A stretch of 64,000 nt of DNA from Chitinophagales bacterium (GCA_016787045.1 JAEUVA010000024.1:33618-97617); one strand, 5' to 3'. Shown: positions 1 through 54,397, counted from the stretch's first letter. Notes: generated from the letters alone by a model not told the origin. Made by a program: numbers and translations.

Positions 1-1026
1 GGTGCGGCACATTTCCTTGTCGCCATTATCCATGCTTACATGAAAACCAAAACCTTTTTCATCTTTGATAGGCAGCGATTCGTAATACGATTTCAGTTCT
101 GCCACTTCTTCTTTTTTCAATAACGGAAAAACAGCATAACCCTCACGTTCAAAAAACTGCTGCTTTTCTTCCTCTTTAAATATAGGAATCATTTTATACA
201 TATCTGCTGCTTTAAGTTGTTGAAATTGTAGCTTGGCTTGGCGATATTCTTCGGCTGTAACAAAGTGTTGTTGGTAATCAAAAACAGTTTTCAGTTCACC
301 AAAATTGGGTCGCTGGCCAATTTGCGTGTTATAGCGCTGAAAAAAATCTTCCTCTACAAAATACTGCTCCACTCTTCCTTCCTCATTTTTGTGGTAAAAC
401 ATGAGTTGTGCAGCTGCATCTATCAAACCATAAGTAACCGCAATGCGCGGCTCACCACTCCTATTTGCTGGAGAAGCATGCAACAATGCCTGCGAAAAAA
501 TAAATGCCTCACCGGCTTTCATTGGCATCAGTTTCAAATCCTTGCGCAACTCGACCTGAATGTTTTTGAATGGGTCTTCTAAAGAAGGCGAACGCAATGC
601 ACTTGAAAAGCGATGGCTGCCGTCAATCACCTGAATAGCACCATTTTTTTCATTCACATCTTGCAATGGAATCCAAATGGTGATGCTATCAAAGTTAGGT
701 TCATCTACCACTGTCCAATCTTGGTGGATGGGCATTTCGCTTTGCGCTCCGGGTTGCTTGTTCAAAAAGCAACCGCCTAATTTTTTGATGGCATTGAAAT
801 GCGAGCCGACTTGTTCGCTCAGCACACCTTCAATCTTATCATTCACACTTTGCTTGTGTGTTTCATCGGTATTGAAGCTGCTGCTGTAAAAACCATCGGG
901 CAGTTGCGAATGTTTTGCAAAGAAAAACTCACGCAGTGCAGCCACCTGTGTCTCGTCCAAAAACGGCACTACCACGTAACCGTTGAGGTTAAATTGTTGT
1001 TGAAGTTTTTCGTTTTTGAAGAGCAT
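1..1026 (-). CDS. Tandem two-domain phytanoyl-CoA dioxygenase (PhyH)-family Fe(II)/2-oxoglutarate oxygenase, 3' end beyond window edge
   Basis: Not in the ORF track because it has no stop in the window. Hand translation from ATG 1026 is open to position 1: MLFKNEKLQQQFNLNGYVVVPFL...EMPIHQDWT...TIWIPLQDVNEKNGAIQVIDGSH...MKAGEAFIFSQALLHASPAN...PRIAV. A second PhyH start follows in frame at 192 (MIPIFKEEEKQQFFEREGYAVFPLL). Confidence 0.85.
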   Translation of the reverse strand, partial: MLFKNEKLQQQFNLNGYVVVPFLDETQVAALREFFFAKHSQLPDGFYSSSFNTDETHKQSVNDKIEGVLSEQVGSHFNAIKKLGGCFLNKQPGAQSEMPIHQDWTVVDEPNFDSITIWIPLQDVNEKNGAIQVIDGSHRFSSALRSPSLEDPFKNIQVELRKDLKLMPMKAGEAFIFSQALLHASPANRSGEPRIAVTYGLIDAAAQLMFYHKNEEGRVEQYFVEEDFFQRYNTQIGQRPNFGELKTVFDYQQHFVTAEEYRQAKLQFQQLKAADMYKMIPIFKEEEKQQFFEREGYAVFPLLKKEEVAELKSYYESLPIKDEKGFGFHVSMDNGDKEMCRT

Positions 1027-1028
1027 GG

Positions 1029-1949
1029 TTAAGCAAAAACTTCTTTCAGTTTTTCAATCAGTCCTTTTTTCTCTTGCAGTTCATCAAAGCGGGGTTGCTG
1101 CAATCGCTGCACAAACTCTTTCTCGTCAATTACGCGGTGTTTGTACGAAATTGTTTTGGTACGTTTCACATTGCCCGGGTTTTTCCACGGATTGAACTGC
1201 ATATAAAAATCCACATCTACCTCCAGCACTTCCACCTCTTCCATGCTCTTTGATGGATTCATGTGGTAATGGATAGAAGGCATTTCGGAGGGTATGCAGA
1301 TAAGTTGAATAGCCAAACGCAAATCACCTGTTTTATTGATAGCGGAGTAGTGTACAATGCTATCATCCAAAATCACACAATCACCGGCTTTGGTTTCTAA
1401 AGGCACTAAGTGATTTTCAATAATTTCTTTTTTGATGTTATCTAACTCCCACGGAATCATGGGCCCGCGCACTTCGCCAAATCGCTTGTGGCTGCCGGGT
1501 ACCACTTGTAGTGTTCCATTTTCAATGGTTGAATCTACCAACGGGCACCATATAGAAACGGTAAAGCATTTGCGTTCATCGGCAAAGGCCCAGTTTTGGT
1601 GCAAGGGTACTTCTCCGGTATCGGTTTGCTTGCGAATGTAGTTGGCAATAATGGGTTTGTAATCGGCCAAAAGGCGTTTCATATGTGGCTTAAAATAATC
1701 GGTGATGATGTTGAACACCATCTGCTTGTACTCGGGGTTCTTATCAATGAATGTGAAATCGTATGTTACCAAGCGGCTATTTTCCACTCCGGTTTCTTCA
1801 GCAGATATTTGTCCGCCACTTTTGGGCAGTGTGTCAAAAAATTTTTGCTTCAGTTCAGCTACTTCTTGTGGTGTAATAAAAGGCACACATACATAACCGT
1901 TTTTTACAAATTGTTCATTCAGTAGGGCATCATTCAAAACTCCACGCAT
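1029..1949 (-). CDS. PhyH-family Fe(II)/2OG dioxygenase with atypical H-x-N metal motif
   Basis: F..NGYV..P N-terminus, VPLHQNW, SIWCPLVD...NGTLQVVPGSH, KAGDCVILDDSIVHYS, LRLAI. Confidence 0.85.
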   Translation of the reverse strand: MRGVLNDALLNEQFVKNGYVCVPFITPQEVAELKQKFFDTLPKSGGQISAEETGVENSRLVTYDFTFIDKNPEYKQMVFNIITDYFKPHMKRLLADYKPIIANYIRKQTDTGEVPLHQNWAFADERKCFTVSIWCPLVDSTIENGTLQVVPGSHKRFGEVRGPMIPWELDNIKKEIIENHLVPLETKAGDCVILDDSIVHYSAINKTGDLRLAIQLICIPSEMPSIHYHMNPSKSMEEVEVLEVDVDFYMQFNPWKNPGNVKRTKTISYKHRVIDEKEFVQRLQQPRFDELQEKKGLIEKLKEVFA

Positions 1950-2011
1950 AGTTTAAATAATTATGGTGGTGAAGATAAGCAAAACGAACAGAGTAAAATC
2001 AATGATCTACG

Positions 2012-2848
2012 TCAGGCGTGATCCACTATTTCGTCTTCTACGCGGGTAAGGTACCAGCAACCGGCTAATGCCATCAAAACTATTGTGGCTACTGCCGGAA
2101 AATACTGCCAAACCGGAAATGGCTCCCCTAAAAGTGCAAACCGGTAACCCTCTATAATGCCCGCCATAGGGTTGAGGTAAACCAAAAAATGATATTGCGG
2201 TGGAATAATGGTAGTAGGGAAAAACACAGGCGTAAACCATATCGCAATTCCTAAAAGCGGAAGAATGATTTGGTTGAGGTCACGATAGCGAACGTTTAGC
2301 GCATTCATCCAAAAAGCAACTGCCAAACCACACATTATGTTGAGTGCCACAAACAGCGGAAGTGTTAAAATACCCACCCCCGGAAAATGGAGCACAACCA
2401 TCATCATTACACCCAATATGAGTAAAGATGCCCCCAACTCTACCATAGCCACCAGCACTTTTGATAATGGCAAAATCATTTTTGGGAAATACATTTTACG
2501 AATCAGGTTTTGCCGCTGCACAATGGCTGTGGAAGCATTAGAAGCTATATTTTGAAAAAAATTCCATGCCACCATGCCGCTAAAAGCAAATAGAAAGTAA
2601 GGGGAGCTGGTTTTTATATTCAATAAAAAGTTAAATAATACAGTGAATACTGATAGGATAACCAGCGGACGAAGCACTACCCACGCCAGCCCAAAATAGG
2701 TTTGTGCGTATTGGGTTTTTATTTCTTGCCAAGCAAAGACCCATATCAAACTGCGGTACTTTACCATCTCGTTCCAGTACTCGCTTATACTGAGTGGATC
2801 GGGAGTAATCACCTTTACAGGTTTGGGGTTTGTAGAAATGGTTTCCAT
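2012..2848 (-). CDS. wzm: ABC-2 type polysaccharide export permease (Wzm/RfbA-like)
   Basis: YRSLIW...EIKTQYAQTYFGLAW, NLIRKMYFPK, VRYRD, TPVFFP, LNPMAGIIEGYR motifs; about six TM helices. Confidence 0.85.
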   Translation of the reverse strand: METISTNPKPVKVITPDPLSISEYWNEMVKYRSLIWVFAWQEIKTQYAQTYFGLAWVVLRPLVILSVFTVLFNFLLNIKTSSPYFLFAFSGMVAWNFFQNIASNASTAIVQRQNLIRKMYFPKMILPLSKVLVAMVELGASLLILGVMMMVVLHFPGVGILTLPLFVALNIMCGLAVAFWMNALNVRYRDLNQIILPLLGIAIWFTPVFFPTTIIPPQYHFLVYLNPMAGIIEGYRFALLGEPFPVWQYFPAVATIVLMALAGCWYLTRVEDEIVDHA

Positions 2849-2850
2849 GC

Positions 2851-5667
2851 TTATCGCTTCAATGTTTTTTCAAGTTCCACAATGGTTTGTTTCAACTTAA
2901 GGTCATTAGGTAGCAACAGTTGCGTTTTCCGAAAGTAATATAATGCGCTGTCGTTCTTCTGCTGGCTCAAAAATATTTTGGCCGTATTGATGTACGGCTC
3001 AAATGCATAAGGGAAAAGTTGTGTGGCTCTGCGGTTTACGCTTACGGCATTATCATAATCTTTGAGCATAAAATAGCTGAAACTAAGATTGGCATACACC
3101 GATTGGTTTTGCGGAAACTTACTCAGGTATTTTTCATACAGCGGAATAGCCCCTGCAAAATCTTTTTTCTCATACAAAATGGATGCCATGTCTAAACAGG
3201 GCACTACAAAATTACTATCTAACTCAATCGTTTTTTTGTAGCTGGCAAAAGCTTCATCGGGCTTGCCGAGCATCAGGTAGCACTGCCCCATATCAAACCA
3301 AGGGTTTTTGTAGTCGGGCACAATTTCTGCGCTGCGCTTGAGGTGAATAATTGCTTCTTCTGCATACTTGGTGCGCTTAGGTTGGTCAGTTGCTTTTTTG
3401 GCTTCTATCAGCAAAGTTACCCCCAGCATATCTTGCCCTTTGGCAGAGTTTTCTAAGTGTTTAATGTCATTGCGATATAGCGTCAATTCGTTTTTCCAAT
3501 CGGTATTGCGGGCAATGGTCATGCCGGTATAAAGCAAAAGGATAGCAGCCAATATTCCTTTTTGTGTAGCAGAAAAATGATGAACGGATAATTTGCCAGA
3601 TGCTTCCTGCTTGAATACAAAAAAGAAAAGTGCCGTTAATGCAGTAGCAGTTCCCAGTGTGGGAACAAACAAAAAACGGTCGGCCATTACACCGGGTACC
3701 ACGGTTACTACGTTGGTGTATGATGCAATACTGATGGTGTAAAACAATAACCCGAAACCGGCTAACTTTTTTTCAGTTGTAATTAACCAGAGGCCAGCAG
3801 CCAACAACAAGCCATAAACGAGTAATCCCAATACCGCAATTCCATCTGTCCACTGGCGCGGCACAATTTCTTTGTATCCATAATAAAATCGCATAGGGTA
3901 GGGCAGTACCGATAACTTCAAGTACCGCAATAAAACATCGGCTGCAGTGCCTATTTTCTCGCTCATAGGCGATAGCCGGTTTACGGGTGTTTCCATAAAC
4001 TGCACGGGGCGGTTTAGGTTTTTTGGTGTGATGTTTACCGGATTTTGCCAATTGATCTTAGCAAGCGCTTCGTTTGTTTTTGGCGCGTTAGATGGAAAAG
4101 TAACAGAGTTCCAAGATAGTAGTAGTGCTACCCAAACCATGGCTACCGATACATATTCGGCAAACTTAGAATGTATGTTTTTAATCAGAATATAAACTAA
4201 CGCAGCCACGTAAGGCACAAGCAAGTACAAAAGAGTATTACTAATCGGATTTCCGTTGATGACTAACCAAGCTACGTATACAAATCCAATACTCAAAAAA
4301 CTAATTCCTGCATAAGTTGTCCATTTATAATTTTTAAATGTCAATGCCGCAAAAAGTAGAACCACCACAATTCCCCAGTAAAAATTACTATGCCAGCCAC
4401 CTATGGTTAAGATTAACAATAGTGAAAAAAGAACAATGTATAATGCGGGTTTTTTTGCTGTGGCAAGTAGCATGGTGCCGGTGGCTAACACATTTACAAA
4501 GAGAAAAGCAGTGCTGATTTCGCACCACATACCTGCACAAAGTAGTGCAGTTGCATAACCCAAAAATAAAATAGGTTTTGCGTCAGCTTGCACGGCAACA
4601 AACAGCGCGCTTAATATAAAAATGCCTGCATACAAAAGGGCTGTATTGGCGTAATACATACCAGCAAAAAACACAGCTAAGCTTACGATCAAAAGACCAA
4701 AGTAAGTGAAGTAAAATGCCGGCTGTGTGTACAATTTTGACCGACTTGCCTCATCATTAGATTGCAACTCAATTTGTGGCTTCATCAAAACATTAATCAC
4801 CTGTTTTTTCTGTTCGCTCCAAAAGTTTAGAAGGTATGCCTTTTGTATCAACAAATAGATAAAAGTTACTACACCGTACGTGCCTCCAATAACTATCATG
4901 CGGCTGCTGATATTCGGCAGGTTTAGCACCGGAAACATCACCACGGCCAAAGTTAAATACAGCGCAGTAACCTCGTACCATCTTACGTTTCTGAAAATTA
5001 GTAGCGAAGCAGGTATAAATATGATGAAGGTGGTAGCCGTTTGCTTAGATAGTAACGCAATGAGAAATGATAATGCTGCCACCGGCAACCAGAGCCATCT
5101 CTTTGGTTTGTCGGTATCTGCAAAAAGCAGTGTAGCTTTCCACGCAAGTAATGAAAAAATAACAGCCAATAACTCATCTCTGTTTTTGATACTGGCTACT
5201 ACCTCGGTATGTATGGGGTGAGCTGCAAAAAGCAGTGTGATAATAAAAGGAACCAATGGCGAATATTCTTGCAGTAGTTGACGCAGTACACTCAATAGCA
5301 ATACGCACAGCAAACCATAAAACAGCACATTGAAAAAATGGCTCCCACTTGCTTTTTCACCAAAAAACTGGTGCTCAATGGCAAAGCTGACTAATACAAT
5401 AGGGCGGTATTCATAAGCAAAGCCCGCTTTGTCTTTATAGTATGGTTCTTTAAAAATATCGGCAATGGCCGATATGCCTTTAGAAGTAAGCCGATGGTTT
5501 TGAGTAACGAGGGTATCATCTATGTTGTAGCCGTTGGGCAACGTGTTGAAATACAAAAACATACTAAACAAAAACACGGTTAGCCATTGCCATTTGCCCG
5601 TGGCGGCATCTAACCAGTTCGTTGAAACGGTTTCTTTTTTAGGAGGTGTTCTTTTAGCAGCTGTCAT
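2851..5667 (-). CDS. TMTC-like GT-C membrane glycosyltransferase with C-terminal TPRs and a large membrane insertion
   Basis: GYNIDD, YRPI, FAAHPIHTEVV..IKNRDELL, LLSKQ, ADRFLFVP, RNTDWKNELTL followed by TPR repeats (approx. residues 745-935). Confidence 0.75.
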   Translation of the reverse strand: MTAAKRTPPKKETVSTNWLDAATGKWQWLTVFLFSMFLYFNTLPNGYNIDDTLVTQNHRLTSKGISAIADIFKEPYYKDKAGFAYEYRPIVLVSFAIEHQFFGEKASGSHFFNVLFYGLLCVLLLSVLRQLLQEYSPLVPFIITLLFAAHPIHTEVVASIKNRDELLAVIFSLLAWKATLLFADTDKPKRWLWLPVAALSFLIALLSKQTATTFIIFIPASLLIFRNVRWYEVTALYLTLAVVMFPVLNLPNISSRMIVIGGTYGVVTFIYLLIQKAYLLNFWSEQKKQVINVLMKPQIELQSNDEASRSKLYTQPAFYFTYFGLLIVSLAVFFAGMYYANTALLYAGIFILSALFVAVQADAKPILFLGYATALLCAGMWCEISTAFLFVNVLATGTMLLATAKKPALYIVLFSLLLILTIGGWHSNFYWGIVVVLLFAALTFKNYKWTTYAGISFLSIGFVYVAWLVINGNPISNTLLYLLVPYVAALVYILIKNIHSKFAEYVSVAMVWVALLLSWNSVTFPSNAPKTNEALAKINWQNPVNITPKNLNRPVQFMETPVNRLSPMSEKIGTAADVLLRYLKLSVLPYPMRFYYGYKEIVPRQWTDGIAVLGLLVYGLLLAAGLWLITTEKKLAGFGLLFYTISIASYTNVVTVVPGVMADRFLFVPTLGTATALTALFFFVFKQEASGKLSVHHFSATQKGILAAILLLYTGMTIARNTDWKNELTLYRNDIKHLENSAKGQDMLGVTLLIEAKKATDQPKRTKYAEEAIIHLKRSAEIVPDYKNPWFDMGQCYLMLGKPDEAFASYKKTIELDSNFVVPCLDMASILYEKKDFAGAIPLYEKYLSKFPQNQSVYANLSFSYFMLKDYDNAVSVNRRATQLFPYAFEPYINTAKIFLSQQKNDSALYYFRKTQLLLPNDLKLKQTIVELEKTLKR

Positions 5668-5668
5668 T

Positions 5669-6775
5669 TTATTTTACACGGTATTCAAACAGGTTGCCAT
5701 AAATAGATTGTACTTGCGCTATCACCTCTGCCCGGTCTGTAATCATTACTTTTCTGTTTTGCTGAGCTAACAGTAGAGCAATTTTTAAACGCTGCGATTC
5801 ATCGATAAAAACAGTACCAGCTTTGTAAGCTACACCGTCTATTTCAATACATTCATCCGGTTTGTGCGCTTTCAAAAGGGTTTGTATTTGAAAATGCAAA
5901 TGTTGTTCATTCACTTTATCTGTTGCTGATGCCAATGGCAGCGGTTGTTGTACGGTATCTGCAAATTTTTGAAGCGCACGGTTATCACGCGGAAAACATG
6001 GCCCGCCAAAACCATCACCATAATTCAAATACTTGTTTCCAATACGCGAATCGGCACCTACTGCTTGCAACACTTTTGTTACATCTGCTCCGGCTTTTAT
6101 CGCCAAATCGCCAATAGAATTTGCAAACGAAATTTTAGTGGTTAAAAAACAATTAGTGGCCAGCTTGGCAATTTCTGCACTTAATCTATCCATCCGGTGA
6201 ACCGTAGGCGTGCTTTGGCAAAAACTGAGATGTAGCTCTTCAATTGCATTGCCTACGCTTTCATTTTCTTCTCCAATTAAAATTACATCCGGGTTTTGCT
6301 GATTGCGGATAATGCTGCCTTGTGCAATAAATTCCGGATTGTAACTAACAGTATAATTATGAGGATTCAATTTAGCTGCCAACGTATTGCAATAGCCCGG
6401 CATAGTGGTACAGCCAATCACCAAATGTTTAGTAGAAGTTGGCTTGGGTAGCGATAAAAGTTGTTCGGCAATTCGCTCTATTTGCTCGTGGTTGTAGCTG
6501 CCATCGGGCAGTGCCGGTGTAGCTACAAAAACAAAAATTAAATCAGTACCCAAAGCAGTTGAAAGATCAGTACTTGCAAAAAAGTTTTTTGCTTCTTGCA
6601 AATATTCATTGACCAGTGGCTCGGGCGAGCGAAAAGCTTTTTGGTTAATACTCAAAACATAATCTTCACTCACATCTACACCGGTAACAAAGTACCCACT
6701 ACGCTCCGCATTCAGTGCAAAGCACAAGCCAAGTTTACCAATACCAATTACACCAATTTTCTTTTCAGCATTCAT
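5669..6775 (-). CDS. UDP-glucose/GDP-mannose dehydrogenase family protein (short C-terminal domain)
   Basis: Rossmann GIGKLG, VATP, NPEFIAQG, AEIAKL..N..L..KISFAN, DSRIG, catalytic GFGGPCFPRD. Confidence 0.85.
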   Translation of the reverse strand: MNAEKKIGVIGIGKLGLCFALNAERSGYFVTGVDVSEDYVLSINQKAFRSPEPLVNEYLQEAKNFFASTDLSTALGTDLIFVFVATPALPDGSYNHEQIERIAEQLLSLPKPTSTKHLVIGCTTMPGYCNTLAAKLNPHNYTVSYNPEFIAQGSIIRNQQNPDVILIGEENESVGNAIEELHLSFCQSTPTVHRMDRLSAEIAKLATNCFLTTKISFANSIGDLAIKAGADVTKVLQAVGADSRIGNKYLNYGDGFGGPCFPRDNRALQKFADTVQQPLPLASATDKVNEQHLHFQIQTLLKAHKPDECIEIDGVAYKAGTVFIDESQRLKIALLLAQQNRKVMITDRAEVIAQVQSIYGNLFEYRVK

Positions 6776-6883
6776 TGTTCTGAGCCGCTACTTACCAAAA
6801 GCCATTGTACTTTGCAAGTTTAGGATAAAGAACCAAACTGTCATTTTTGTGTTTAATCAATCGCTCTACATTCGCCTTAAATT

Positions 6884-7951
6884 ATGGTTATGGACAGTAC
6901 TGCAAGAAAATGGATAGGAACATGGTTGCTCATTGGTTGTGTGATGGTATTTTTTCAGGTGATGGTAGGCGGAGTAACGCGGCTTACCGAGTCGGGCTTA
7001 TCCATTACGGAATGGAAACCTATTAAAGGCATAGTGCCACCAACCAATGAACAAGAATGGAACGCAGAATTTGAACGTTACAAAACCATAGCACAGTACC
7101 AAACAATCAATCAGGGCATGTTGCTTAGTGAGTTTAAGTGGATTTATTTTTGGGAATACTTCCATCGGTTTTGGGCGCGGTTTATGGGTTTTGTGTTTGC
7201 TATACCCTTTGCTTTTTTCTTATACAAAAAGTGGTTTACTAAAGACCTGATGCAAAAAACCATTCCGCTTTTTGTGTGGGGTGGTGTAATAGGAGTTTAC
7301 GGTTGGATAATGGTGCGTAGCGGCTTGCGCGGTATGTATGTACCTCCCATTCACCTCAGCATTCACCTGCTGTTAGCCATGAGTTTGTTTGGATACTTGG
7401 TGTGGCTGACTACGTATGTCTGGTTGGGCGTTTCCGCAACTACGGCCATTTCAAAGTATAAAAATTTATTGTGGGTAATGCTTGTTCTTTTGTTTGTACA
7501 GGTGTTTTTTGGCGGCATTGTTTCGGGCATGAAAGCCGGCTTGGCCGCCAACGACTGGCCGCTCATCAACGGGCAACTCATTCCCGACACATTATGGCAG
7601 TTATCGCCCAATAGCAGCGGGTTTACGCAGTACAATGCACAAGATTTTTGGGGAAGAATTTTTATACAGTTTGTTCATCGTAGCACGGCATATATTATTG
7701 TTGGTTTGGTGTTTTTCTTTTGGTGGAAAAACAGAAATGCGGTAACTTCATCCACCGGCAAATTAGGTATCAATCTTTTACCGCTTACCGTTTGCTTACA
7801 AGCTATTATTGGAATATTTACTGTGGTAAATTGCGTGGGTCACATACCCGTTTTTTATGGAGTGCTGCATCAGGTAGGAGCCATGTTGCTCATTGCTAAT
7901 ATGGTTTTTGTGCTGTTTCACATGCAGCAAAAAAGTACATTGGCGGTATGA
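6884..7951 (+). CDS. ctaA: Heme A synthase (COX15/CtaA type 2)
   Basis: VGGVTRLTESGLSITEW, WEYFHR, QFVHR, VLHQ motifs; 8 TM. Confidence 0.9.
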   Translation: MVMDSTARKWIGTWLLIGCVMVFFQVMVGGVTRLTESGLSITEWKPIKGIVPPTNEQEWNAEFERYKTIAQYQTINQGMLLSEFKWIYFWEYFHRFWARFMGFVFAIPFAFFLYKKWFTKDLMQKTIPLFVWGGVIGVYGWIMVRSGLRGMYVPPIHLSIHLLLAMSLFGYLVWLTTYVWLGVSATTAISKYKNLLWVMLVLLFVQVFFGGIVSGMKAGLAANDWPLINGQLIPDTLWQLSPNSSGFTQYNAQDFWGRIFIQFVHRSTAYIIVGLVFFFWWKNRNAVTSSTGKLGINLLPLTVCLQAIIGIFTVVNCVGHIPVFYGVLHQVGAMLLIANMVFVLFHMQQKSTLAV

Positions 7952-9580: not shown

Positions 9581-10567
9581 CTAAACAGCGGCAGCATTAT
9601 TTTTCATCAAATTTACTTTACCATCTTTTACTCGCTCTACACGGCTAAACAACGAGTAGCGGCTATCAAACAAAAAAGCCAACCATAATTTTACCCAACT
9701 GGTGTGGTATTTTATGTTGTTGTAATATTCGGGAGCCACCTCGCGTATTTTGGGTAAATTATTCCAGGGTACCGATGGAAAATCGTGGTGTTCGTTATGA
9801 TAACCCACATTGAGTGCCACAATATTTATTGGGCCGTAGTAACTAAAAGTTTCCTGCTCTCCTTCTGGTGTGTAGTGTTCTTGTATCCAACGCGCACCAA
9901 CCGGATGTAAACCTATAGACAGGAAAAATGAAAACACCAGGTAGAGCAAGCCCGCCCATCCGCAGAAATAAATAATCAACGCATCGTAAGTAACGGCAGC
10001 TATCAGATTGTACCAGCTCCATTGGCTCCACATTTTTATGGCCTTTAAACGGGGCGGACGCGTAAGTTGAAACAATGGGAAAAACGCCAGCCAAAATGCT
10101 TTGCCAAAAAAATTATTGCCAATAAACTTGGCTTCCCAGCGGTTGGCCAAATCGGCATCATAATCATAATCGCCTTGGTGTGCATGGTGCTTGAGGTGGT
10201 AAACAAAAAAGCCCATAGAACCCGGAAACAAATTGGGTAGGTCAGCAAAAATAGCCGTCCACCTATTCCAGCTTTTGCTGGTAAAAATCAAATTATGGCT
10301 TGCTTCATGTATAATCACATACATACAATGGTTGGCAAAAGCCCCGACCAGATAAGCCAAAATCAAAGCTACCCACCAGTAGTGTAGGCCCAACTGCCCC
10401 ATAGCGTAAGCAATAGAGGTTTGCAAGGCCAATACAAAAAGCATAATGCCAAAGGTGTAAGGATTTTTGCCCATCAGTTTTTTAATCTCCGGATATTTGC
10501 GCATCAGTTCTTTGGTGCGCTGTGGGTGTGGCTGGTCAATATCCGATTGGTGAAAATTGCTTTGCAT
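9581..10567 (-). CDS. Membrane fatty-acid desaturase, sphingolipid delta-4 desaturase / C4-hydroxylase (DEGS/DES1)-like
   Basis: His boxes HEASH, HLKHH, HNEHH. N-terminal DQPHPQR...KYPEIKKLM and C-terminal GLHP, ETFSYYGP.N...NVGYHNEHHDFP, APEYY, SWVK are DES1-type signatures. Confidence 0.85.
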   Translation of the reverse strand: MQSNFHQSDIDQPHPQRTKELMRKYPEIKKLMGKNPYTFGIMLFVLALQTSIAYAMGQLGLHYWWVALILAYLVGAFANHCMYVIIHEASHNLIFTSKSWNRWTAIFADLPNLFPGSMGFFVYHLKHHAHQGDYDYDADLANRWEAKFIGNNFFGKAFWLAFFPLFQLTRPPRLKAIKMWSQWSWYNLIAAVTYDALIIYFCGWAGLLYLVFSFFLSIGLHPVGARWIQEHYTPEGEQETFSYYGPINIVALNVGYHNEHHDFPSVPWNNLPKIREVAPEYYNNIKYHTSWVKLWLAFLFDSRYSLFSRVERVKDGKVNLMKNNAAAV

Positions 10568-10703
10568 ACGCGGCAAAAATAGCAGGGGAAATGGTTTGCA
10601 GTAGCAACTGTTAATTTGTAGTCAATCACCCATAAATCATTATTGGGCATTGGAGCTAGGTGGTATTCTGCCATCTCAAATACCCCATTATATTCGCCCC
10701 GCT

Positions 10704-11054
10704 ATGCAAATATCTGTCTATAAAAGTAAAATACACCGCGCCACTGTTACGCAGGCCGATTTAAACTACATCGGCTCTATTACCATAGATGAAAATTTGA
10801 TGGAGGCCGCCAACTTGGTGGAGCATGAGCGCGTGCAAATTGTTAACGTAAATAATGGAGAGCGCTTAGAAACGTATGTTATTAAAGGCGAGCGTGGTTC
10901 GGGCATTATTTGTCTGAACGGCCCAGCAGCACGCAAGGTGGCAGTTGGCGATATTATCATCGTGATTTCCTACTGCAACCTTACCATGGAAGAATACAAA
11001 ACCCATCAACCGGTAACTGTACACGTCAACTCGGCTAATCAACTTACTGATTAA
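10704..11054 (+). CDS. panD: Aspartate 1-decarboxylase
   Basis: [23 protein letters not shown] (G-S autocleavage site), [17 protein letters not shown]; start moved to ATG 10704. Confidence 0.95.
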
Positions 11055-11071
11055 TTATTTTTTTATTTATT

Positions 11072-12079
11072 ATGAAAAAACACATCGGCAATGCACTTAA
11101 ACTCCTTTTGTCGCTGGGTTTAGGCGTGGGTCTTATCTATTGGTTTGTGGGAAAAATGAGTGATGATGACATCCGGCTCACCAAAGATGCTTTCCTGCGC
11201 GCCAACTATTTCTGGATTTTTTTGGCACCGGTTATGGGGCTTATCTCCAACTTTAGCCGTGCCCGCAGGTGGATAATGCTGCTGGAGCCAACCGGCCACA
11301 AGCCCGGTTTTATCAATACCTATTGCAGTGTAATGATGATGTATTTGTTCAATCTGCTTTTTCCGCGGTTGGGCGAGGTGACCCGTTGTAGTATACTAGC
11401 GCGCTACGAAAACGTACCCTTAGACAAAAGCATAGGCACCATGGTGGTAGAGCGGCTGGTAGATTTATTTACCATTGTTGTAATTGGCTCACTCTTACTG
11501 TTTTTTGAACGCGAACGGCTGATGACTTTTTTTCAGGAAAACGTATTGAGCAAACCTGAAGCAGCTCCTATAGAAAGCGGTTACATGAAGTGGGTAGTGT
11601 ACGGTATAATACTCTTGGGGATAATTGCAGCCGCAGTATATTTTGAACAGAAGTATGGCTTTGCCCGGTTCAAGCAAATGCTGAAAGAACGTTTGGTTGG
11701 TTTTTTTGAAGGATTAAAATCTATCCGCAATGTAAGCAACCCTGCAGAGTTTGTTTTTCACTCTGTGTTTATATGGGTATGCTACTTTTTGATGATATAT
11801 TGGAGTTTCCCCGCGTTGGCCGAAACTAAGGGAATGGGTGTATCTACAGGCATGGCCTGTTTATTTTTTGGGGGATTTGCCATGGTTGCCACTCCGGGTG
11901 GTATTGGCGCGTATCCGTTAGCTATTTCTAAAGTTTTGGCGCTGTATGGATTGAGCGAAACTATTGGCTATGCCTTTGGCTCCATAGTGTGGGTGGCACA
12001 AATGGGGGCAGTACTTTTAGGAGGTGTAATTTGTTTAGTCGTGTTGGCAATAATCAACCGTGAGCCAGCGTTAGAGTAA
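11072..12079 (+). CDS. Lysylphosphatidylglycerol synthase TM / UPF0104 flippase-like membrane protein
   Basis: RARRW..LL, N...PRLGEVTR, GTMVVERLVD, TPGGIGAY. Confidence 0.85.
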   Translation: MKKHIGNALKLLLSLGLGVGLIYWFVGKMSDDDIRLTKDAFLRANYFWIFLAPVMGLISNFSRARRWIMLLEPTGHKPGFINTYCSVMMMYLFNLLFPRLGEVTRCSILARYENVPLDKSIGTMVVERLVDLFTIVVIGSLLLFFERERLMTFFQENVLSKPEAAPIESGYMKWVVYGIILLGIIAAAVYFEQKYGFARFKQMLKERLVGFFEGLKSIRNVSNPAEFVFHSVFIWVCYFLMIYWSFPALAETKGMGVSTGMACLFFGGFAMVATPGGIGAYPLAISKVLALYGLSETIGYAFGSIVWVAQMGAVLLGGVICLVVLAIINREPALE

Positions 12080-15488: not shown

Positions 15489-18400
15489 TTAGTGTTTAAT
15501 TACAAATTGACTGTAAGTATCGTAATCTGTGCGGATATTCAGAAAGTAAATACCCGTACCCCATTCGCTAGTGGTTATGGTCATCGTTTCTTCCATAATT
15601 GGTGAATAAAACAATACCCTGCCCAGTGGGTCGGTAATGGTTACATGAGTAATAGAGGATACAGGTATGTTGCGAATAAAGATTTCATCGCGAAATGGAT
15701 TGGGTACTACGGAAATTAAATCGTGCAGGTTTACATTGTTTACAGCGTTCGTTAGCGCTGTGAGCGTAACAGATGTAGTGGCAGAGCAACCGTGGGCATC
15801 GGTTACTGTAAGTGAGTAAGTGCCGGGGCCGAGAGCACCAATAGCCGGTACCTGTGCTGCATTGCTCCATGAATAGGAGTATGGGGCTATTCCGTCAAGT
15901 GCTATAACCGATATGATGCCATCAGCAGAAGTGGCCGTAAGCGGGTGTTTAATGCTATCAAAGATGAATGCTATGGCAGCCGGCTGCGTGATGGTAGTAT
16001 GGTAAGTGTAACTACAACCCGAAGCATTGCTAATGGTAAGCGAATAGGTGCCGGAACTTACATTGGTGATGGAGTCGGTAGTATGTCCGGTATTCCAAAG
16101 CAACGTGTACCCTCCCGGTATAGAGCCGGTGATGTTGGCTTTCAGTGTAGTTTTGTTACCATGGCATTTAATGGGAGCCGCTGCGAAAGAAACGCTGAGT
16201 TGTGCAGCTACGGGGTTCACTATTTCAAATGTGTCTCTTGCTTCACAGGGGGTAGATGTGGTCTTTAATAAGTACTTGCCGGGTTGGGGTTGTGGCAATG
16301 TAAAACTACCTGCTCCGCTAAATACCATACTGCCCGTAGTAAGATAAAGGCATTGATATGTGATAGTGTTATCAATTAAACTATTATTTAATACAATAGG
16401 TTGAACCACAACCGGTGAGATCTGGCAAAGAAAGGTATCCTTAAAGTTAATACTAATAGCATTGGTTGTATTTACATTGACAAACTGAATGGCATTGCTG
16501 GTGCATCCATTGGGTGTATAAGCGGTAGCAGTATATGTGGTAGGAGAAACCGGGTTTGAAATGGCAATCAAATCTCCAGCAGTGGGTAATGCAGCATTAG
16601 TGCCGGTATCGGGCAACCAATGAATGAGCGTGCCGGGCGGCAAATCTTGCACGCACACATTAAAAAGTGTATTGGGTCTGGTACTGGATGTATTGTACGG
16701 GGTGAAGTAGTCGCATGGCTGTATGTTTGTGGCGGTGTAACACACAGACACAAATGGCGTGTTGGTAGCCATCATTTTTGAATTGAGCGAGCCGGAGTTG
16801 CCTGTGTATGAACATACCTCTACCACTATGTCGGACACCCCATCCCAATCATAAGGTATGTCCAACAGGTGTGTTTTCCATCCGGTATTGGCGGGCGGCC
16901 ATAATGTTAAACTTTTGGGGGTAAACACCGTTTGCAGATTGCTCACCCAACCGTTTTCCAGGTTACTGAGCGATACGCAGCCCATTTTTATTTCAAAATT
17001 TTCTAATGAGTCATTTGCAGATGAATTACTCTGGCTGAGGTAAAATGCGATACTTTTGATGGTACCTCCTTTTACTCCATATTGCTTTAACTCGGCCGCT
17101 TTGTACAGAAATTGGTGTCGCGCGCCTTTTTGGTAATGACCATACACGGTTGGATAACCCGTAGCAGAACTAGCCGGTGTTTGGTAGTTGCCCGTACCTA
17201 CTTGCACCGGAATAGAATTGCCGGTACAGAGCGTATTGTTTGCACCACACGATTTAGCAACTTGAAGCAATGTTAATTGTACAGTTCCACCGGATTGGCA
17301 AAGCACCTCTGGCTCAGCCACTATTTTTAATTCCGCACCACTGTTTTGTACAGTTATCAAAACAGTATCATGTGTCAAACAGCCATTTATATTAGTAGCA
17401 GTTGCAATGTAATGGGTGCTTATTGCAGGTGCGGCCAATACTATTTCAGATGTAGAGTCAGTGCCACCGGTTACCGGATTTATCAATCCTTGGGTCGGAT
17501 TCCATTTCAAACTCCATCCGGCAGAATCGCTGGAACTTGCGGAGAGAGGAGCAAAAGCATTTCTGCATATTGTTGTATCGCCCCATGCAGTGAGTGAGAA
17601 AGCCGGAAACGGTTGTACGGTAACACTATCCGTGCCACATGTAGAATGTAAATAATATGTTTGAGTGGCTTGTGGCGAAACGCTCGTTTGGTAACTATTT
17701 GGATTAGATACGGCATTGATACCTGTGTTGGGTGCCCACACCGGATTGCTGCCCCCTACGGCTTTCAAGATTACAGGCGTGCCACAAAACGATGTGCTCA
17801 CCGCCTGTATATTGGGGTGTGGTGCTGTGCAAAGCGTAAATTTTCGCCAGTTGGAGCCGGTTATGGGGCAGTTGTCTAGCTTGCTCTTTAACCAAAAGCT
17901 ATGGCATCCGCTCAAAGTTGGAGCAACCACGTATGTAACCTGTGCAGTAACAGAGCTATGGGTGCCTTGCTGAAGCAAATCAACAACAAATGCCGAGTCG
18001 GCTATGACTGAGCTAACCTTAAGTGGTGCGCCAATCTCTGATAGTACCAATGATTGAAACTGTACGGTATCGCTAGGGCAGGCATACAAGGTATCTGCTC
18101 CGCCAGCGTAACCACCATTTATGTTTTGCGCTGACGTGATGTCTGGCAGAGTGAGCTTGCAAGGCAGCACGGCAATTTGTATGTCGCGCATTACACTACC
18201 TACTAAAACTCCGTTGCGGTATTCACTCACTTTGATAGCAGCCACACTATACTCTAAGTTTGAAGGGGTAATTTTCCAAAGGCCGGTTTGGGTATCAAAA
18301 CTTTGTTGCGTACCTTTGATGGGTTGCTGGGCAGACCATCCGTTATTAAAAGGTATGGGATTGTAAGTTTCATTCAACGGATGGACCAATTCATACACCA

Positions 18401-19040
18401 GCGAGTCGCCATCCGGATTGTACCCGCCATGAAAAAAAACAATGTGTGAATTAGCACATGCAGTATGAAACCCCGGCTCTAAAAAACGGATAGAGCTATT
18501 TTGCAATGCTATGCCCGTAGCCGGTTGTATGGCATTGTTTATCTGCGCTACCAATCCATACCCTGTTGAGCTTGGATTTGGAATATTGCTGAGTGCATTA
18601 TTTCTGCAACATTCGCTAAAGCGTATCTGCCAGTTGTTGCAATTACCATTGAGGGTAACAGTACCTGTGTACACATACAAACGAACACCCGGATAAACAG
18701 GTGTGCTGCCAGCAGGGTTGGCCGGGCAAACACCGGAGGGTTGGCAAGTAGTAAGTACGCCCGATAGATTGCATACTTGTGACATTTCATTATTTGTTCC
18801 GGAGACGTCCTGAAGGATAAAATTTGAGTTGGTATTTGTACAAGTGTTAACTGCCTGCATCTGCACAGACGAAGGCATAGAGATGCCGCAGCAATCTCTG
18901 TAATAGTTTAAGGTAATCTGGTACTGGTTTCCGCCAATATGTCGGTACGATATATCAGCACCCGCAAAATGAGAGCCAAATGAAACTGTGCTTAAAAAAA
19001 TATAGAATAGGATAAGTGCGAAGTATATGCTGCGTTTCAT
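15489..19040 (-). CDS. Large Cys-rich T9SS cargo (adhesin-like, SprB-type repeats, type A CTD)
   Basis: Signal peptide + SHFAGADISY; Ig/SprB-like repeats (G..PYSYSWSN...GTYSLTVTDAHGC); CTD VVPNPF...GIYFLNI...VIKH. Confidence 0.8.
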   Translation of the reverse strand: MKRSIYFALILFYIFLSTVSFGSHFAGADISYRHIGGNQYQITLNYYRDCCGISMPSSVQMQAVNTCTNTNSNFILQDVSGTNNEMSQVCNLSGVLTTCQPSGVCPANPAGSTPVYPGVRLYVYTGTVTLNGNCNNWQIRFSECCRNNALSNIPNPSSTGYGLVAQINNAIQPATGIALQNSSIRFLEPGFHTACANSHIVFFHGGYNPDGDSLVYELVHPLNETYNPIPFNNGWSAQQPIKGTQQSFDTQTGLWKITPSNLEYSVAAIKVSEYRNGVLVGSVMRDIQIAVLPCKLTLPDITSAQNINGGYAGGADTLYACPSDTVQFQSLVLSEIGAPLKVSSVIADSAFVVDLLQQGTHSSVTAQVTYVVAPTLSGCHSFWLKSKLDNCPITGSNWRKFTLCTAPHPNIQAVSTSFCGTPVILKAVGGSNPVWAPNTGINAVSNPNSYQTSVSPQATQTYYLHSTCGTDSVTVQPFPAFSLTAWGDTTICRNAFAPLSASSSDSAGWSLKWNPTQGLINPVTGGTDSTSEIVLAAPAISTHYIATATNINGCLTHDTVLITVQNSGAELKIVAEPEVLCQSGGTVQLTLLQVAKSCGANNTLCTGNSIPVQVGTGNYQTPASSATGYPTVYGHYQKGARHQFLYKAAELKQYGVKGGTIKSIAFYLSQSNSSANDSLENFEIKMGCVSLSNLENGWVSNLQTVFTPKSLTLWPPANTGWKTHLLDIPYDWDGVSDIVVEVCSYTGNSGSLNSKMMATNTPFVSVCYTATNIQPCDYFTPYNTSSTRPNTLFNVCVQDLPPGTLIHWLPDTGTNAALPTAGDLIAISNPVSPTTYTATAYTPNGCTSNAIQFVNVNTTNAISINFKDTFLCQISPVVVQPIVLNNSLIDNTITYQCLYLTTGSMVFSGAGSFTLPQPQPGKYLLKTTSTPCEARDTFEIVNPVAAQLSVSFAAAPIKCHGNKTTLKANITGSIPGGYTLLWNTGHTTDSITNVSSGTYSLTISNASGCSYTYHTTITQPAAIAFIFDSIKHPLTATSADGIISVIALDGIAPYSYSWSNAAQVPAIGALGPGTYSLTVTDAHGCSATTSVTLTALTNAVNNVNLHDLISVVPNPFRDEIFIRNIPVSSITHVTITDPLGRVLFYSPIMEETMTITTSEWGTGIYFLNIRTDYDTYSQFVIKH

Positions 19041-35004: not shown

Positions 35005-37125
35005 ATGAAAAAGTTATTACTCTTTTTAGTTGCAGCAGCTACGTTTATCACGTCAGCAAACGCACAGGCCCCACAAGGCATGAACTATCAAGCCATAGTT
35101 CGCAGTTCAACAGGTGCACCGGTTACTACCGGCACTGTACGTTTTCGTTTTACCATCCGCGATGGCTCACCTACTGGCTCAGCCGTATTTCAAGAATCAC
35201 AAACCGCTAACCCTAATCAGTTTGGTTTGGCTAATGTGGTTATTGGTACTGGCGGTGGCAACTTAGCTACTGTTAACTGGGGCAATGGTTCAAAATATTT
35301 ACAAGTAGAGTTAGACGTAACCGGTGGTACTAACTACACCGATATGGGTACTACTCAATTAATGAGCGTTCCTTACGCACTATTTGCCGGGAATGCCGGT
35401 GGCGCTACAGGCCCACAAGGTCCTACCGGTCCACAAGGCCCGGCCGGTAACGATGGTGCACCAGGCTCAGCAGGCCCAGCAGGTCCTACCGGTGCAGCAG
35501 GCGCTACTGGTGCAGCCGGAAATGACGGAGCTACTGGAGCAACTGGTGCTACAGGCCCACAAGGAGCCACAGGAGCTACAGGTTCAGGCGGTGGTGCTAC
35601 TGGCGCTACAGGTGCTACTGGCCCTACTGGTGCTGCTGGAGCAACAGGTAGCGCAGGTGCTACTGGTGCAGCAGGTGCTACCGGTGCCACAGGTGCAGTT
35701 GGTGCTACCGGTGCCACAGGTGCCACCGGTGCGGGTGCTACCGGTGCCACAGGTGCCACAGGCCCTGCCGGAAGCGGCACGGTAAGCGGTACATTAAACA
35801 CTGTGGCTAAGTTTACCCCTAACGGTACTTCTGTAGGCAACTCTCAAATTACTGATGATGCTACAACAGTATCAGTAGGCACACCGTTTACGGGTGTTGG
35901 GCTGGTGCATGTGGCTGGTGGGGTATCTACTAACAGTGCTGGCGGAGCGGGTTTCTACACCTATCAAACAGGAGTATTTAAAGGGGGTATGGAATTATTT
36001 GCCGGAGGGTATGACATCTATACAGATGCTACCACGCCAATTACATTTAGTCCTGGTGGTGGTTCTGAGCGCGCTCGCATTACACCAACCGGAGATGTAG
36101 GTATAGGCACTGCTGCACCAGGTGCTAAACTTGAAGTAGCGGGTCAGGTAAAAATAACCGGAGGCGCTCCGGGGGCAGGTAAAGTTTTAACTTCAGACGC
36201 AACCGGTTTAGCTACATGGGAAACTCCAGCAGCGGGTGGTGGTCAATGGATAACCAGTGGCAACAACATTTACAATGCTAATACTCAGTCTGTAGGTGTG
36301 GGCATCGCCACTCCAAGTGCAGTACACAAATTGCATGTGGTTGGTACTGACACTGCTGCAATTTATGGTGTATATAATGGTACTTTGAATGGTAAAACCG
36401 CAATTCATGGACACAATGCTTATGCTACTTTCACCGGTAGCGGAAACAACATTGGTGTGTTGGGTACTTACAACACAGCCGTTTACGGTACAGGTGTGGC
36501 TGGTATTGGTTTCACCGGTACTAAGCCGGCTAACGGTTTAGATATTGGCGTGTATGGCTCGGCTTCCATTGGTGGTTATTTTAAAGGGTCAACCGCTATA
36601 CGTGCAGAAGGTGTAGTAACCATTGTGGATGGTACACAAGGTGCCGGCAAAGTGTTAACTTCTGATGCTAACGGAAACGCTTCTTGGCAAACGCCAAGTG
36701 GTGGTGGCGGAGGCGGCACTGCCGTAACTGCTGCTTCATTTAGCGGATTTGCGGGAAGCAGCATTGCATCTGGCTCAACAGCATACGTTTTTGCAGGTCC
36801 AACAACCACAGTTACTATTACTTCTACCACTCAGCGAATTGTGGCTTCTGCCTCAGCAAATTTGGGAATGACTACAGGCAGCACAAATGCTGATATCGGT
36901 ATTTGTTACCAATTAGGAGCAGGAGCAATCACTAACTTTGTTGGAATCAACTACATAACAATGGCGCTGAATTCTACAACAACAGGCACTGTATCTGCTG
37001 ATGGCAGCATTACCGGTTTAGCTCCGGGTACTTACACCATTGGCTTAGGTATAAGAAATAGTGGAGCAGGTGCAATTAACAATAACGACTATGTTAATGG
37101 TTGGGTTATGGTGATTGGAAATTAA
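35005..37125 (+). CDS. Secreted collagen-like / tail-fibre-like trimeric surface protein without a T9SS CTD
   Basis: Signal peptide; [13 protein letters not shown]...SVPYALFA N-domain; about 40 Gly-X-Y triplets; G.VGIG...P..KL.V.G and [15 protein letters not shown] repeats; beta-rich C-terminal head. Confidence 0.8.
35401..35769 (+). repeat. Collagen Gly-X-Y repeat (GAT-dominated)
   Basis: 123 codons: 20 triplets, a GSGG break, 15 triplets, a GA break, 4 triplets; 9-nt DNA units such as GGTGCTACC/GGTGCCACA. Confidence 0.9.
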
Positions 37126-39566: not shown

Positions 39567-39653
39567 TATTCGCTTGTTTTGAGGGGCGCAAATTAAATCC
39601 AATTCAGCCAATAGAAAACGCAAGTTTTCTAAACCTTTTTACAACGAAATGGC

Positions 39654-39661
39654 TACATTTG
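39654..39661 (+). promoter_or_regulatory. -7 promoter element TACATTTG for the large adhesin gene
   Basis: Exact TAnnTTTG 38 nt before ATG 39700; supports that start. Confidence 0.55.
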
Positions 39662-39699
39662 GCGTCTTTCATCTTTTTATAGCAAACACTTTCTTTCTG

Positions 39700-54321: not shown

Positions 54322-54397
54322 CCCCCTCGTTTACAACTTTACCCCTCTGTTTGTTGTTTATACAACTATTTTATCTTCGTTGGCTTTTAAAAAATTG

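Follow-up and report, generated by a model that had tools for sequence, protein, structure and literature searches.

Does an operon in which a sugar-nucleotide dehydrogenase, a membrane-bound glycosyltransferase, an exporter permease, and a row of oxygenases follow each other almost without spacing encode one single glycan pathway? The question is raised by the left end of the stretch of DNA analyzed here (64,000 nucleotides, G000:C24:33618-97617; hereafter "the window") from a Chitinophagales bacterium, where G000 is the genome of the window and C24, C49, and C11 are contigs of that genome. A preliminary description had proposed that the five genes at positions 1-6775 form a pathway in which an acidic glycan or glycolipid is tailored by PhyH oxygenases, flipped by a Wzm-type permease, and attached to an acceptor by a TMTC-like enzyme, possibly to Thr-rich adhesins. 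Judged by gene order in relatives, the operon is rather a lineage-specific fusion of a pair, consisting of the dehydrogenase (UGDH) and the GT-C glycosyltransferase, with a widespread and portable Wzm-PhyH cassette, because the full gene order was found in only one relative (G005) and the cassette recurs without the pair.

The reading that we put forward, tentatively and with a probability of roughly 45%, is that a lipid-linked glycan is oxidized at the membrane and then exported by the Wzm-type permease with a Wzt-type ATPase encoded in trans. The cassette (module 2) comprises the permease and five genes with six PhyH Fe(II)/2-oxoglutarate (2OG) oxygenase domains (A, B-C, D, E, and F). These oxygenases would perform, at the cytoplasmic face of the inner membrane, several distinct C-H oxidations on a polyprenyl-linked glycan, and a Wzt/TagH-type ATPase whose gene lies elsewhere in the genome would drive the oxidized glycan through the Wzm channel. 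In module 1, the short nucleoside diphosphate (NDP)-sugar 6-dehydrogenase would supply a uronic-acid-type precursor, and the GT-C enzyme with its tetratricopeptide repeats (TPR) would take a sugar from a lipid-linked donor and pass it on to an acceptor at the periplasmic side. In this lineage, module 1 would be co-expressed with the cassette and would probably act on the same surface glycoconjugate. The product is most likely an unusually oxidized, undescribed cell-surface glycan.

Operon layout and conservation

A listing of the open reading frames (ORFs) returned exactly the layout first described, with five co-oriented ORFs on the minus strand separated by gaps of 1, 2, 62, and 2 nucleotides (nt), and Pfam and NCBIfam bore out the assigned identities, namely an NDP-sugar 6-dehydrogenase, a TPR protein that weakly matches PMT_2, an ABC-2 permease, and two PhyH proteins (Table 1). 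The operon extends beyond the left edge of the window, where three more PhyH genes follow (gap of 10 nt, overlap of 1 nt, gap of 12 nt). In total it comprises eight genes over 10,477 bp (C24:29916-40392), the first five of which lie in the window, and past the last PhyH gene there is a gap of 214 nt and then an esterase sorted by the type IX secretion system (T9SS). The earlier count of at least three PhyH domains is right for the full operon, which has six, but too high for the window itself, where Pfam recognizes only two PhyH stretches; the third domain begins near residue 300 of the last window gene and lies mostly to the left of the window.

Conservation was mapped from two sides. The neighborhood map of the GT-C enzyme used 16 loci, 15 of them from relatives, and a query with the didomain protein PhyH_BC gave 27 loci (one genome per species, all metagenome-assembled genomes, two of them repeating G005 and G021; ORFs below 80 aa are ignored in the map), whose titles name Chitinophagales, Bacteroidetes, or Flavobacteriales, plus one Verrucomicrobia. 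The full eight-gene order occurred in 1/15 relative loci and in 1/27 PhyH_BC loci, both of which are G005. Between G000 and G005, the proteins are 67% (UGDH), 49% (GT-C), 77% (permease), and 68-77% (PhyH proteins) identical, and such an identical order at 49-77% protein identity argues that the tight arrangement is not due to chance. The UGDH and GT-C genes are adjacent in only 4 genomes; orthologues of the dehydrogenase adjoin the GT-C orthologue in G005, G008, and G022, and in the latter two the pair stands without the cassette and is followed by a GT8-like gene. Upstream of most other GT-C paralogues stand a GT8-like and a GDSL gene, not PhyH.

The cassette, on the other hand, is common. 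The permease adjoins PhyH_A, in either order, at 18/27 loci (18/24 of those with the upstream side on the contig; at three of the nine loci without this adjacency the contig breaks off), and the spacing is often just 0-15 nt; PhyH_A adjoins PhyH_BC at 22/27. PhyH D and E come next in most cassette loci and F in about half, and at the distant loci L054-L057 domain D is fused with E and extra copies are present. Only 1/27 loci contained UGDH and the orthologous GT-C gene, and among the 26 PhyH_BC loci that lack this pair, 17 have the cassette. The PhyH_BC didomain was found in 58/301 genomes of the order, including 26/31 of the family and 14/18 of the genus (a sample of the order); near-complete genomes such as G070 and G083 have matches of 43-45% identity. 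The proposed link between wzm and PhyH genes is thus strongly supported by conservation, while the idea of a single TMTC-like, Wzm, and PhyH pathway did not survive the same comparison. Oxidative tailoring coupled to a Wzm-type exporter is the conserved core and most likely concerns a lipid-linked glycan, and attachment by the TMTC-like enzyme belongs to a single lineage. At L054:10001-22677, eleven PhyH domains were seen, seven of which follow the permease on one strand and four lie on the other; a methyltransferase and a Wzt-type ATPase are encoded between the two groups.

A fusion of this kind raises the possibility that the two modules are functionally unrelated and were joined by lineage accident, with UGDH and the GT-C/TPR enzyme serving a periplasmic glycosylation (e.g., TMTC/PMT-type protein O-glycosylation) and the cassette a different polymer. 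The occurrence of the pair without the cassette, and of the cassette at 17 pair-less loci, is what such an accident predicts; the GT-C family is also abundant, with about 4 paralogues in G000 and matches in 41/41 genomes of relatives (own genus and 16 other families of the order, usually several matches each), most of the paralogues being paired with GT8-like and GDSL genes. We still consider this explanation unlikely. The gap of 2 nt between the GT-C and permease genes is kept in G005, which implies co-expression, and 5/27 cassettes have a GT-C/TPR or PMT_2 gene at a distance of at most 10 kb, compared with roughly 2% by chance (a rough estimate based on about four copies per 4-Mb genome, and the five loci are kin). 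PhyH genes moreover occur near other GT-C paralogues as well (L027, L028, and L029).

Permease, oxygenases, and ATPase

The permease matched PF01061 with 53.9 bits (cut-off 26.9) and the NCBIfam models Wzm/RfbD (E 1e-13) and KpsM (E 3e-8), both of which are equivalogs whose cut-offs lie far above its score. When a profile of 18 permease orthologues was compared with solved chains, only seven reached E < 0.1, all of them Wzm/TarG/O-antigen-type permeases (9.1e-33 to 1.3e-14), among them 6m96_B (9.1e-33), TarG 6jbh_C (3.4e-28), and 9qfx_A (6e-22). By these profiles the permease is a member of the Wzm/TarG/KpsM group of glycopolymer exporters. A prediction of the complex of permease and PhyH_A scored 0.00 in two runs without controls and weighs neither way.

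The neighbors of the cassette in other genomes support the glycan context that had been proposed. Small GT2 enzymes are encoded beside the PhyH array at 12 of the 27 loci, an ArnC-like GT2 (polyprenyl-phosphate glycosyltransferase, E 9.6e-51) flanks L054-L057 and is encoded elsewhere in G000, and further neighbors are a UDP-GlcNAc 3-dehydrogenase-like oxidoreductase (E 4.4e-49) and a WecE-like aminotransferase (E 8.2e-101). L041 has a WecA-family GT4 and a Wzc-like kinase, L056 a DprE1/DprE2-like pair, and Wzt/TagH-type ATPases with C-terminal extensions lie within 10 kb of 4/27 cassette loci. Many B12-radical-SAM genes, CMAS-like methyltransferases, and WelO5-like oxygenases also recur.

Part of this neighborhood fits a different substrate. 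DrrAB-type ABC-2 systems export lipid-like products, and the founding PhyH enzyme acts on an acyl-CoA; the cassette might thus tailor a membrane lipid or lipid-like product by poly-hydroxylation of alkyl or isoprenoid chains, with C-methylation and sulfation encoded elsewhere and the permease as lipid exporter. CMAS-like methyltransferases, fatty-acid desaturases (L033 and L047), a FabH-like KAS III enzyme (L054), GDSL lipases, LPG_synthase_TM and UbiA prenyltransferase genes, and the many B12-radical-SAM genes, found near cassettes or in an island on C49 that is described below, are in line with it, and amphipathic tails such as those of the oxygenases would suit any membrane-embedded substrate. 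However, the permease profile matched no solved chain outside the Wzm, TarG, and related O-antigen-type permeases, Wzt/TagH is the best-scoring type for the ATPases encoded close to cassettes, and no neighbors are more common than sugar-nucleotide and GT2/GT4 genes, which makes a lipid product rather improbable.

The five PhyH proteins scored 70.5-163.7 bits with PF05721 (cut-off 22). PhyH_A reached 81.8 bits, the part of PhyH_BC inside the window 89.1 bits, and the full PhyH_BC protein 163.7 bits in all over two stretches. The other five domains are 25-30% identical to PhyH_A, and each domain forms a separate orthologous lineage. Domains B-F carry the iron site H-Q-D...H...R in G000, and H-x-D...H...R is present in 122/122 orthologue domains. 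In PhyH_A of G000, the site reads H117-Q-N119...H200...R211, and H-(Q/E)-N...H...R was found in 23/23 sequences including that of the window (orthologues of L033-L057), with the distal His and the Arg kept. The Arg, presumably the 2OG-binding one, follows the distal His by 11 residues in domains B-F as in PhyH_A, which is the spacing of human PhyH. Hydroxylases of this kind use a carboxylate as iron ligand, and halogenases have Ala or Gly at that position; going by its sequence, the Asn of PhyH_A is neither. A literature search at title and abstract level found no report of an H-x-N iron site.

No N-terminal signal sequence was found in the translations of the operon's oxygenases, and the C-terminus of each of the five proteins is a short tail that is basic and amphipathic, with a net charge of +1 to +3. 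The tail pattern is retained in orthologues with variable preceding linkers, and it is lacking in the three other PhyH genes of G000, which lie on C49. In the AlphaFold 2 (AF2) model of PhyH_A (predicted local distance difference test, pLDDT, 84.2), a terminal helix spans residues 297-305 behind a linker of low confidence. These features suggest that the oxygenases are most likely located at the cytoplasmic face of the inner membrane. A profile of the six domains found SnoK (2.6e-13), SnoN (2.7e-11), EvdO2 (1.9e-10), and PHYHD1/MysH (1e-14) by sequence; the sugar-acting enzymes SnoK, SnoN, EvdO2, and HygX are among the best PhyH sequence and fold matches, GriE and proline hydroxylase are among the fold matches of PhyH_A, and ESM Atlas returned only "PhyH family" clusters for PhyH_A.

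An exporter of this type should have an ATPase. The observation that no wzt follows wzm holds for the window up to 12,079 and for the DNA to its left, where none of the ten ORFs annotated at C24:21.2-34.6 kb is an ABC ATPase; the negative result covers annotated genes at C24:21.2-45.7 kb, the ORFs at C24:13.7-21.2 kb having been left out of the annotation. The nearest ABC ATPase (C24:11444-12340) was matched by a Wzt-type query only at E 1e-15. In total, G000 encodes 2 Wzm-type permeases and 3 Wzt/TagH-type ATPases. The second permease (C49:283139-283999) is paired with an ATPase, and two ATPases have no permease, one at C49:90179-91297 in an island of ~40 kb and one at C11:174453-175694. Beside the latter, a soluble 276-aa protein is encoded; it was considered as a divergent Wzm and rejected, since hydrophobic segments are lacking and a profile comparison showed no similarity (probability 0.1). 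The same arrangement, a Wzt-type ATPase followed by a soluble protein of ~270-285 aa of no known family and no permease, occurs at C11:173607-175694, L029:6704-8822, and L059:2202-4293, and in G002 such a pair lies between a GT-C/TPR gene and a FAD-PhyH fusion with a sulfotransferase gene.

It was suggested earlier that the oxygenases occupy the place of the ATPase. In its strongest form, they would be docked on the permease, with tailoring coupled to an ATPase-independent or shared channel. The frequent and nearly gapless adjacency of PhyH_A and the permease would agree with this, and PhyH_A, the only domain with the non-canonical H-x-N site, could fit the role of an adaptor. To our knowledge, however, ABC-2 permeases of the Wzm group have been described only in combination with nucleotide-binding subunits, and with Wzt-type ATPases in cis at four of the 27 loci and two permease-less copies in G000 the suggestion finds no support; we regard docking as very improbable.

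The island on C49 (60000-99999; L061 and L027) encodes four B12-binding and two further radical-SAM enzymes, two sulfotransferases, three PhyH proteins, a WelO5-like oxygenase, two UbiA prenyltransferases, a GT2, a GDSL lipase, an LMF1-like membrane protein, a DUF1800/DUF1501 pair, a carbamoyltransferase, a CMAS-like methyltransferase, and a second GT-C/TPR protein of 936 aa. G005 shows the same pattern of permease-less ATPases, one of them among four B12-radical-SAM and three PhyH genes. At L042, the cassette, three radical-SAM genes, and Wzt stand in one locus, and the best relatives of two of these radical-SAM genes lie on the C49 island of G000 (47-49% identity), which suggests that genes united in one locus in other genomes are divided between C24 and C49 in G000. 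Relatives of the methyltransferase of the island, with 45-51% identity, are encoded next to the cassettes L044, L045, and L054-L057. The C49 ATPase appears to be the better candidate partner of the permease. In the tree it grouped weakly with the cis ATPases of L054 and L057 (81/90), possibly by long-branch attraction, and no clear orthologue of it was found in five relatives, the best match being 40% identical over the nucleotide-binding part.

The oxygenases, together with the radical-SAM enzymes encoded elsewhere, could also be imagined to modify a ribosomal peptide or protein, as in proteusins, for which the permease would provide export or immunity. B12-radical-SAM genes, an Asp/Asn beta-hydroxylase, and PhyH genes do cluster in the islands of G005 and G000 (C49), and amino acid hydroxylases are found among the folds similar to PhyH_A (GriE and proline hydroxylase). 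Yet no precursor-like small ORF, peptidase, or NHLP-type or leader-associated gene was seen beside the 27 cassettes (ORFs of at least 80 aa), and since transporter type and neighbors point to glycans, a peptide substrate has very little probability.

The dehydrogenase and the GT-C/TPR enzyme

The dehydrogenase of module 1 has the N-terminal NAD-binding Rossmann domain (PF03721, E 1.1e-22) and the central dimerization domain (PF00984, E 2.8e-28) of its family and matched TIGR03026 with 225.5 bits (cut-off 189.8) over profile positions 1-353 of 413. PF03720 gave no match at E 0.01, and the protein has 368 aa compared with 439 aa for the second UGDH homologue of the genome. Its translation contains GGPCFPRD, with Arg in place of the Lys of the catalytic-cysteine motif of UGDH-type enzymes (GGxCxxKD type).

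In Pfam, the GT-C protein is recognized by its TPR repeats (about aa 727-938) and a weak PMT_2 match (E 3.6e-4; 24 bits, cut-off 26.1). An AF2 model (mean pLDDT 77) was compared with 48,161 chains by VIA-align, where helical bundles can reach a Z of about 13-14 by chance, and three GT-C enzymes stood among rows of TPR proteins: ALG12 (9s6t_A, Z 16.8, root-mean-square deviation (rmsd) 4.4, 312 aa), AglB (3waj_A, Z 16.6, rmsd 4.5, 325 aa), and Pmt1-Pmt2 (6p2r_B, Z 16.1, rmsd 4.8, 335 aa). ArnT and TMEM260 are not among the fold matches listed, which does not speak against either. When the whole protein was searched with Foldseek or as a profile against the PDB, TPR matches dominated, and the membrane domain became visible only in the wide VIA-align comparison. 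Across 17 members of the family, D50, D51, Y87-R88-P89, H150-P151-x-H153-x-E155, and K208 are invariant, and the acidic pair D50/D51 directly follows the first predicted helix of the model.

Human TMTC proteins are described with the motifs DD, SHKSYRP, (A/V)HPIHT, and KET(Q)xxT in the part of PMC7801869 that deals with them, and within that description DD, YRP, AHPIHTE, and K-x-T-x-x-T of the GT-C protein match in order and position. The likeness to eukaryotic TMTC1-4 and PMT (GT39-like) enzymes includes the GT-C fold, the DD after the first helix, the other motifs, and the C-terminal TPR. Unlike these enzymes, the protein comes from a bacterial host, and the hallmark domain DUF1736 was not matched at E up to 5 in residues 1-300, 301-539, or 540-760, nor is it among the precomputed Pfam domains of 120 listed relatives. 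PMT_2 remains below its cut-off, and an additional block of helices (~300 aa, at about aa 250-550), which is poorly conserved and absent from paralogues of ~670 aa, gives the model many more helices than the 11 transmembrane helices of TMTC. Because of the last three differences, "TMTC-like" can be kept only as a description; it probably captures the mode of action, as far as the model and motifs go, and not membership of the TMTC family. Public names of the relatives are "tetratricopeptide repeat protein" or none in 119/120 listed cases, with one "glycosyltransferase family 39," and the GT-C/TPR family represents a large, unrecognized set of bacterial TMTC-like enzymes. The 49% identity of the GT-C proteins of G000 and G005 (L016:3953-6772) is low next to the 67-77% of every neighboring gene.

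The other part of the earlier proposal, a link of the operon to Thr-rich adhesins, received no evidence. The proteins meant are presumably the large Thr-rich ones of the window (Table 1), which lie 9-53 kb from the operon.

Standing of the proposal, known systems, and minor features of the window

Several observations weigh against a lipid-linked glycan that is oxidized and exported by this operon. Annotation of the eight genes revealed neither a glycan-assembly glycosyltransferase nor an initiating phosphoglycosyl transferase, and lipid-type genes accompany the cassettes. Two candidates compete for the role of the ATPase in trans, and most of the tree of these ATPases lacked resolution. The hydrophobic moments of the oxygenase tails (0.58-0.66) are only moderately high, corresponding to the 87th-94th percentile of 2196 C-termini of G000, and the fold matches of PhyH_A spread evenly across the superfamily (TM score 0.45-0.57) with no specific nearest neighbor. 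The shared pathway may also be a one-lineage coincidence, as pair and cassette occur together in only one other genome. Contigs from RNA libraries span the PhyH_A/PhyH_BC junction (X18, 945-1396, one mismatch; X20, 865-1300) and, at 93% identity, the UGDH/GT-C junction (X20, 5614-5886), but they are assembled, so that a single transcript is not provable and DNA carry-over is possible. Three RNA runs yielded nothing on 1848-4831, which carries no weight as evidence. In DNA run X2, from a study other than that of the possible source run, all 30 bins of window positions 1-6900 were covered, and 10/15 pieces were at least 99% identical to the window; the host is an uncultured sludge bacterium, and its family is common in sludge and bioreactors.

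The oxidation and export of a lipid-linked glycan, if correct, would be filed as a variant of the ABC-transporter-dependent glycan pathway. It shares with the Wzm/Wzt O-antigen pathway a permease whose profile matches solved Wzm-type and TarG chains, and ATPases near cassettes that score best as Wzt/TagH and have C-terminal extensions; here, however, no Wzt is adjacent, and the operon has no polymerizing glycosyltransferases. WbdD, the membrane-tethered kinase/methyltransferase terminator of E. coli O9a, is a cytoplasmic tailoring enzyme with an amphipathic C-terminal helix and in this respect similar, but six Fe/2OG oxygenase domains replace the terminator in the operon. In the ArnT pathway, Ugd, ArnC, and ArnT lead to a modification of lipid A, for which the GT-C enzyme uses a polyprenyl-phosphate sugar. 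The sugar 6-dehydrogenase, the GT-C enzyme, and the ArnC-like GT2 flanking L054-L057 are reminiscent of it, whereas the operon lacks homologues of ArnA, ArnB, and ArnD and its GT-C enzyme has TPR and TMTC-type motifs.

The PhyH-type enzymes of orthosomycin (EvdO/AviO/HygX) and nogalamycin (SnoK/SnoN) biosynthesis, pathways in which a single glycosylated scaffold is modified by several paralogues, rank among the best sequence matches and the PhyH_A fold matches, though PHYHD1 and MysH are at least as similar. They are soluble and belong to antibiotic clusters of actinomycetes, in contrast to the six domains of this Bacteroidota operon, with their membrane-type tails and a polymer exporter encoded next to them. 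Comparable published arrangements are lipopolysaccharide (LPS) cassettes of Xanthomonas, with the PhyH-like gene XAC3597 inside the wzm/wzt LPS cluster of Xanthomonas citri 306 (PMC3130047) and a PhyH-family gene in the BXO8-type LPS cassette (bioRxiv 10.1101/2022.03.02.482478). Going by the descriptions in the relevant parts of both sources, these have one or two PhyH genes beside both wzm and wzt and neither a PhyH array nor a didomain nor a reported H-x-N variant.

A literature search at title and abstract level found nothing on a Wzm-PhyH array or on TMTC-like enzymes of Bacteroidota. The assembly, capping, and export of ABC-transporter-dependent glycans are well understood, and a battery of Fe/2OG enzymes for C-H tailoring is not part of that knowledge; five to six distinct oxygenase lineages nevertheless travel with a Wzm permease in most sampled genomes of the family. 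If the substrate is indeed a surface glycan, this would point to a new envelope chemistry of bacteria, one that would bear on floc formation and on how phages and predators recognize the cells; the oxygenases would be of biocatalytic interest as regio-specific sugar oxidases, and the conserved H-x-N site of PhyH_A would pose a testable question for non-heme iron enzymology. As a long shot, the permease and the six membrane-tethered domains could even form one coupled tailoring-and-export machine, restricted to Chitinophagales-type Bacteroidota, in which a lipid-linked polymer is oxidized at many positions while being fed into the channel, either through hydroxylation or through cross-links of the orthoester or ether type known from orthosomycins. 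PhyH_A would then be a non-canonical oxygenase to which an acidic (uronic-acid) substrate lends the missing carboxylate, or serve as Wzm adaptor, the GT-C enzyme would in this lineage attach or decorate the product, and the poly-oxidized glycans would be a class new to bacteria.

Table 1. Position of the operon genes and of other features in the window
Feature	Position	Strand	Length	Remarks
PhyH_BC	1-1026	-	638 aa	First 342 of 638 residues, open at window edge; gene end at C24:32727, left of window
PhyH_A	1029-1949	-	306 aa	PF05721
Permease/PhyH_A spacer	1950-2011	-	62 nt	
Wzm-type ABC-2 permease	2012-2848	-	278 aa	
GT-C glycosyltransferase with C-terminal TPR	2851-5667	-	938 aa	
NDP-sugar 6-dehydrogenase	5669-6775	-	368 aa	UGDH family, short
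Divergent intergenic region	6776-6883	.	108 nt	Between first operon gene and ctaA; presumed operon promoter region
ctaA	6884-7951	+		
Sphingolipid delta-4-desaturase-like gene	9581-10576	-		Lipid_DES and FA_desaturase
panD	10650-11054	+		
LPG_synthase_TM/flippase-like gene	11072-12079	+		
Large Thr-rich proteins	15489-19040, 35005-37125, 39649-45372, 54380-57226, 59788-63999			11-17.5% Thr, N-terminal hydrophobic stretches

Signals of expression were looked for in the spacer and upstream of the operon. An inverted repeat TGA-N6-TCA (2014-2003, minus strand) overlaps the stop codon of the permease gene, and TGA-N5-6-TCA is kept in 7/9 aligned permease-to-PhyH_A spacers (the window and L016, L038, L044, L047, L048, and L056); such a repeat could act as hairpin or binding site. 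The sequence TATCTTCA in the same spacer has two mismatches to TAnnTTTG, the -7-type promoter motif of Bacteroidota. An exact TAnnTTTG is present at 2082-2075, inside the permease gene (minus strand), and was not found on the minus strand of 6776-6883. Scans for sigma-70-like promoters and terminators gave nothing above shuffled sequences, with models that were not built for Bacteroidota promoters.

To the right of the operon, beyond ctaA and a major facilitator superfamily (MFS) transporter gene, follow the desaturase-like gene, panD, and the LPG_synthase_TM gene. On the other side of the operon, downstream of the T9SS esterase, a Dam-family N6-adenine methyltransferase is encoded beside a protein with a PD-(D/E)XK nuclease domain (L003:12050-13579, C24:25749-27278), and the two are likely to form a restriction-modification pair.

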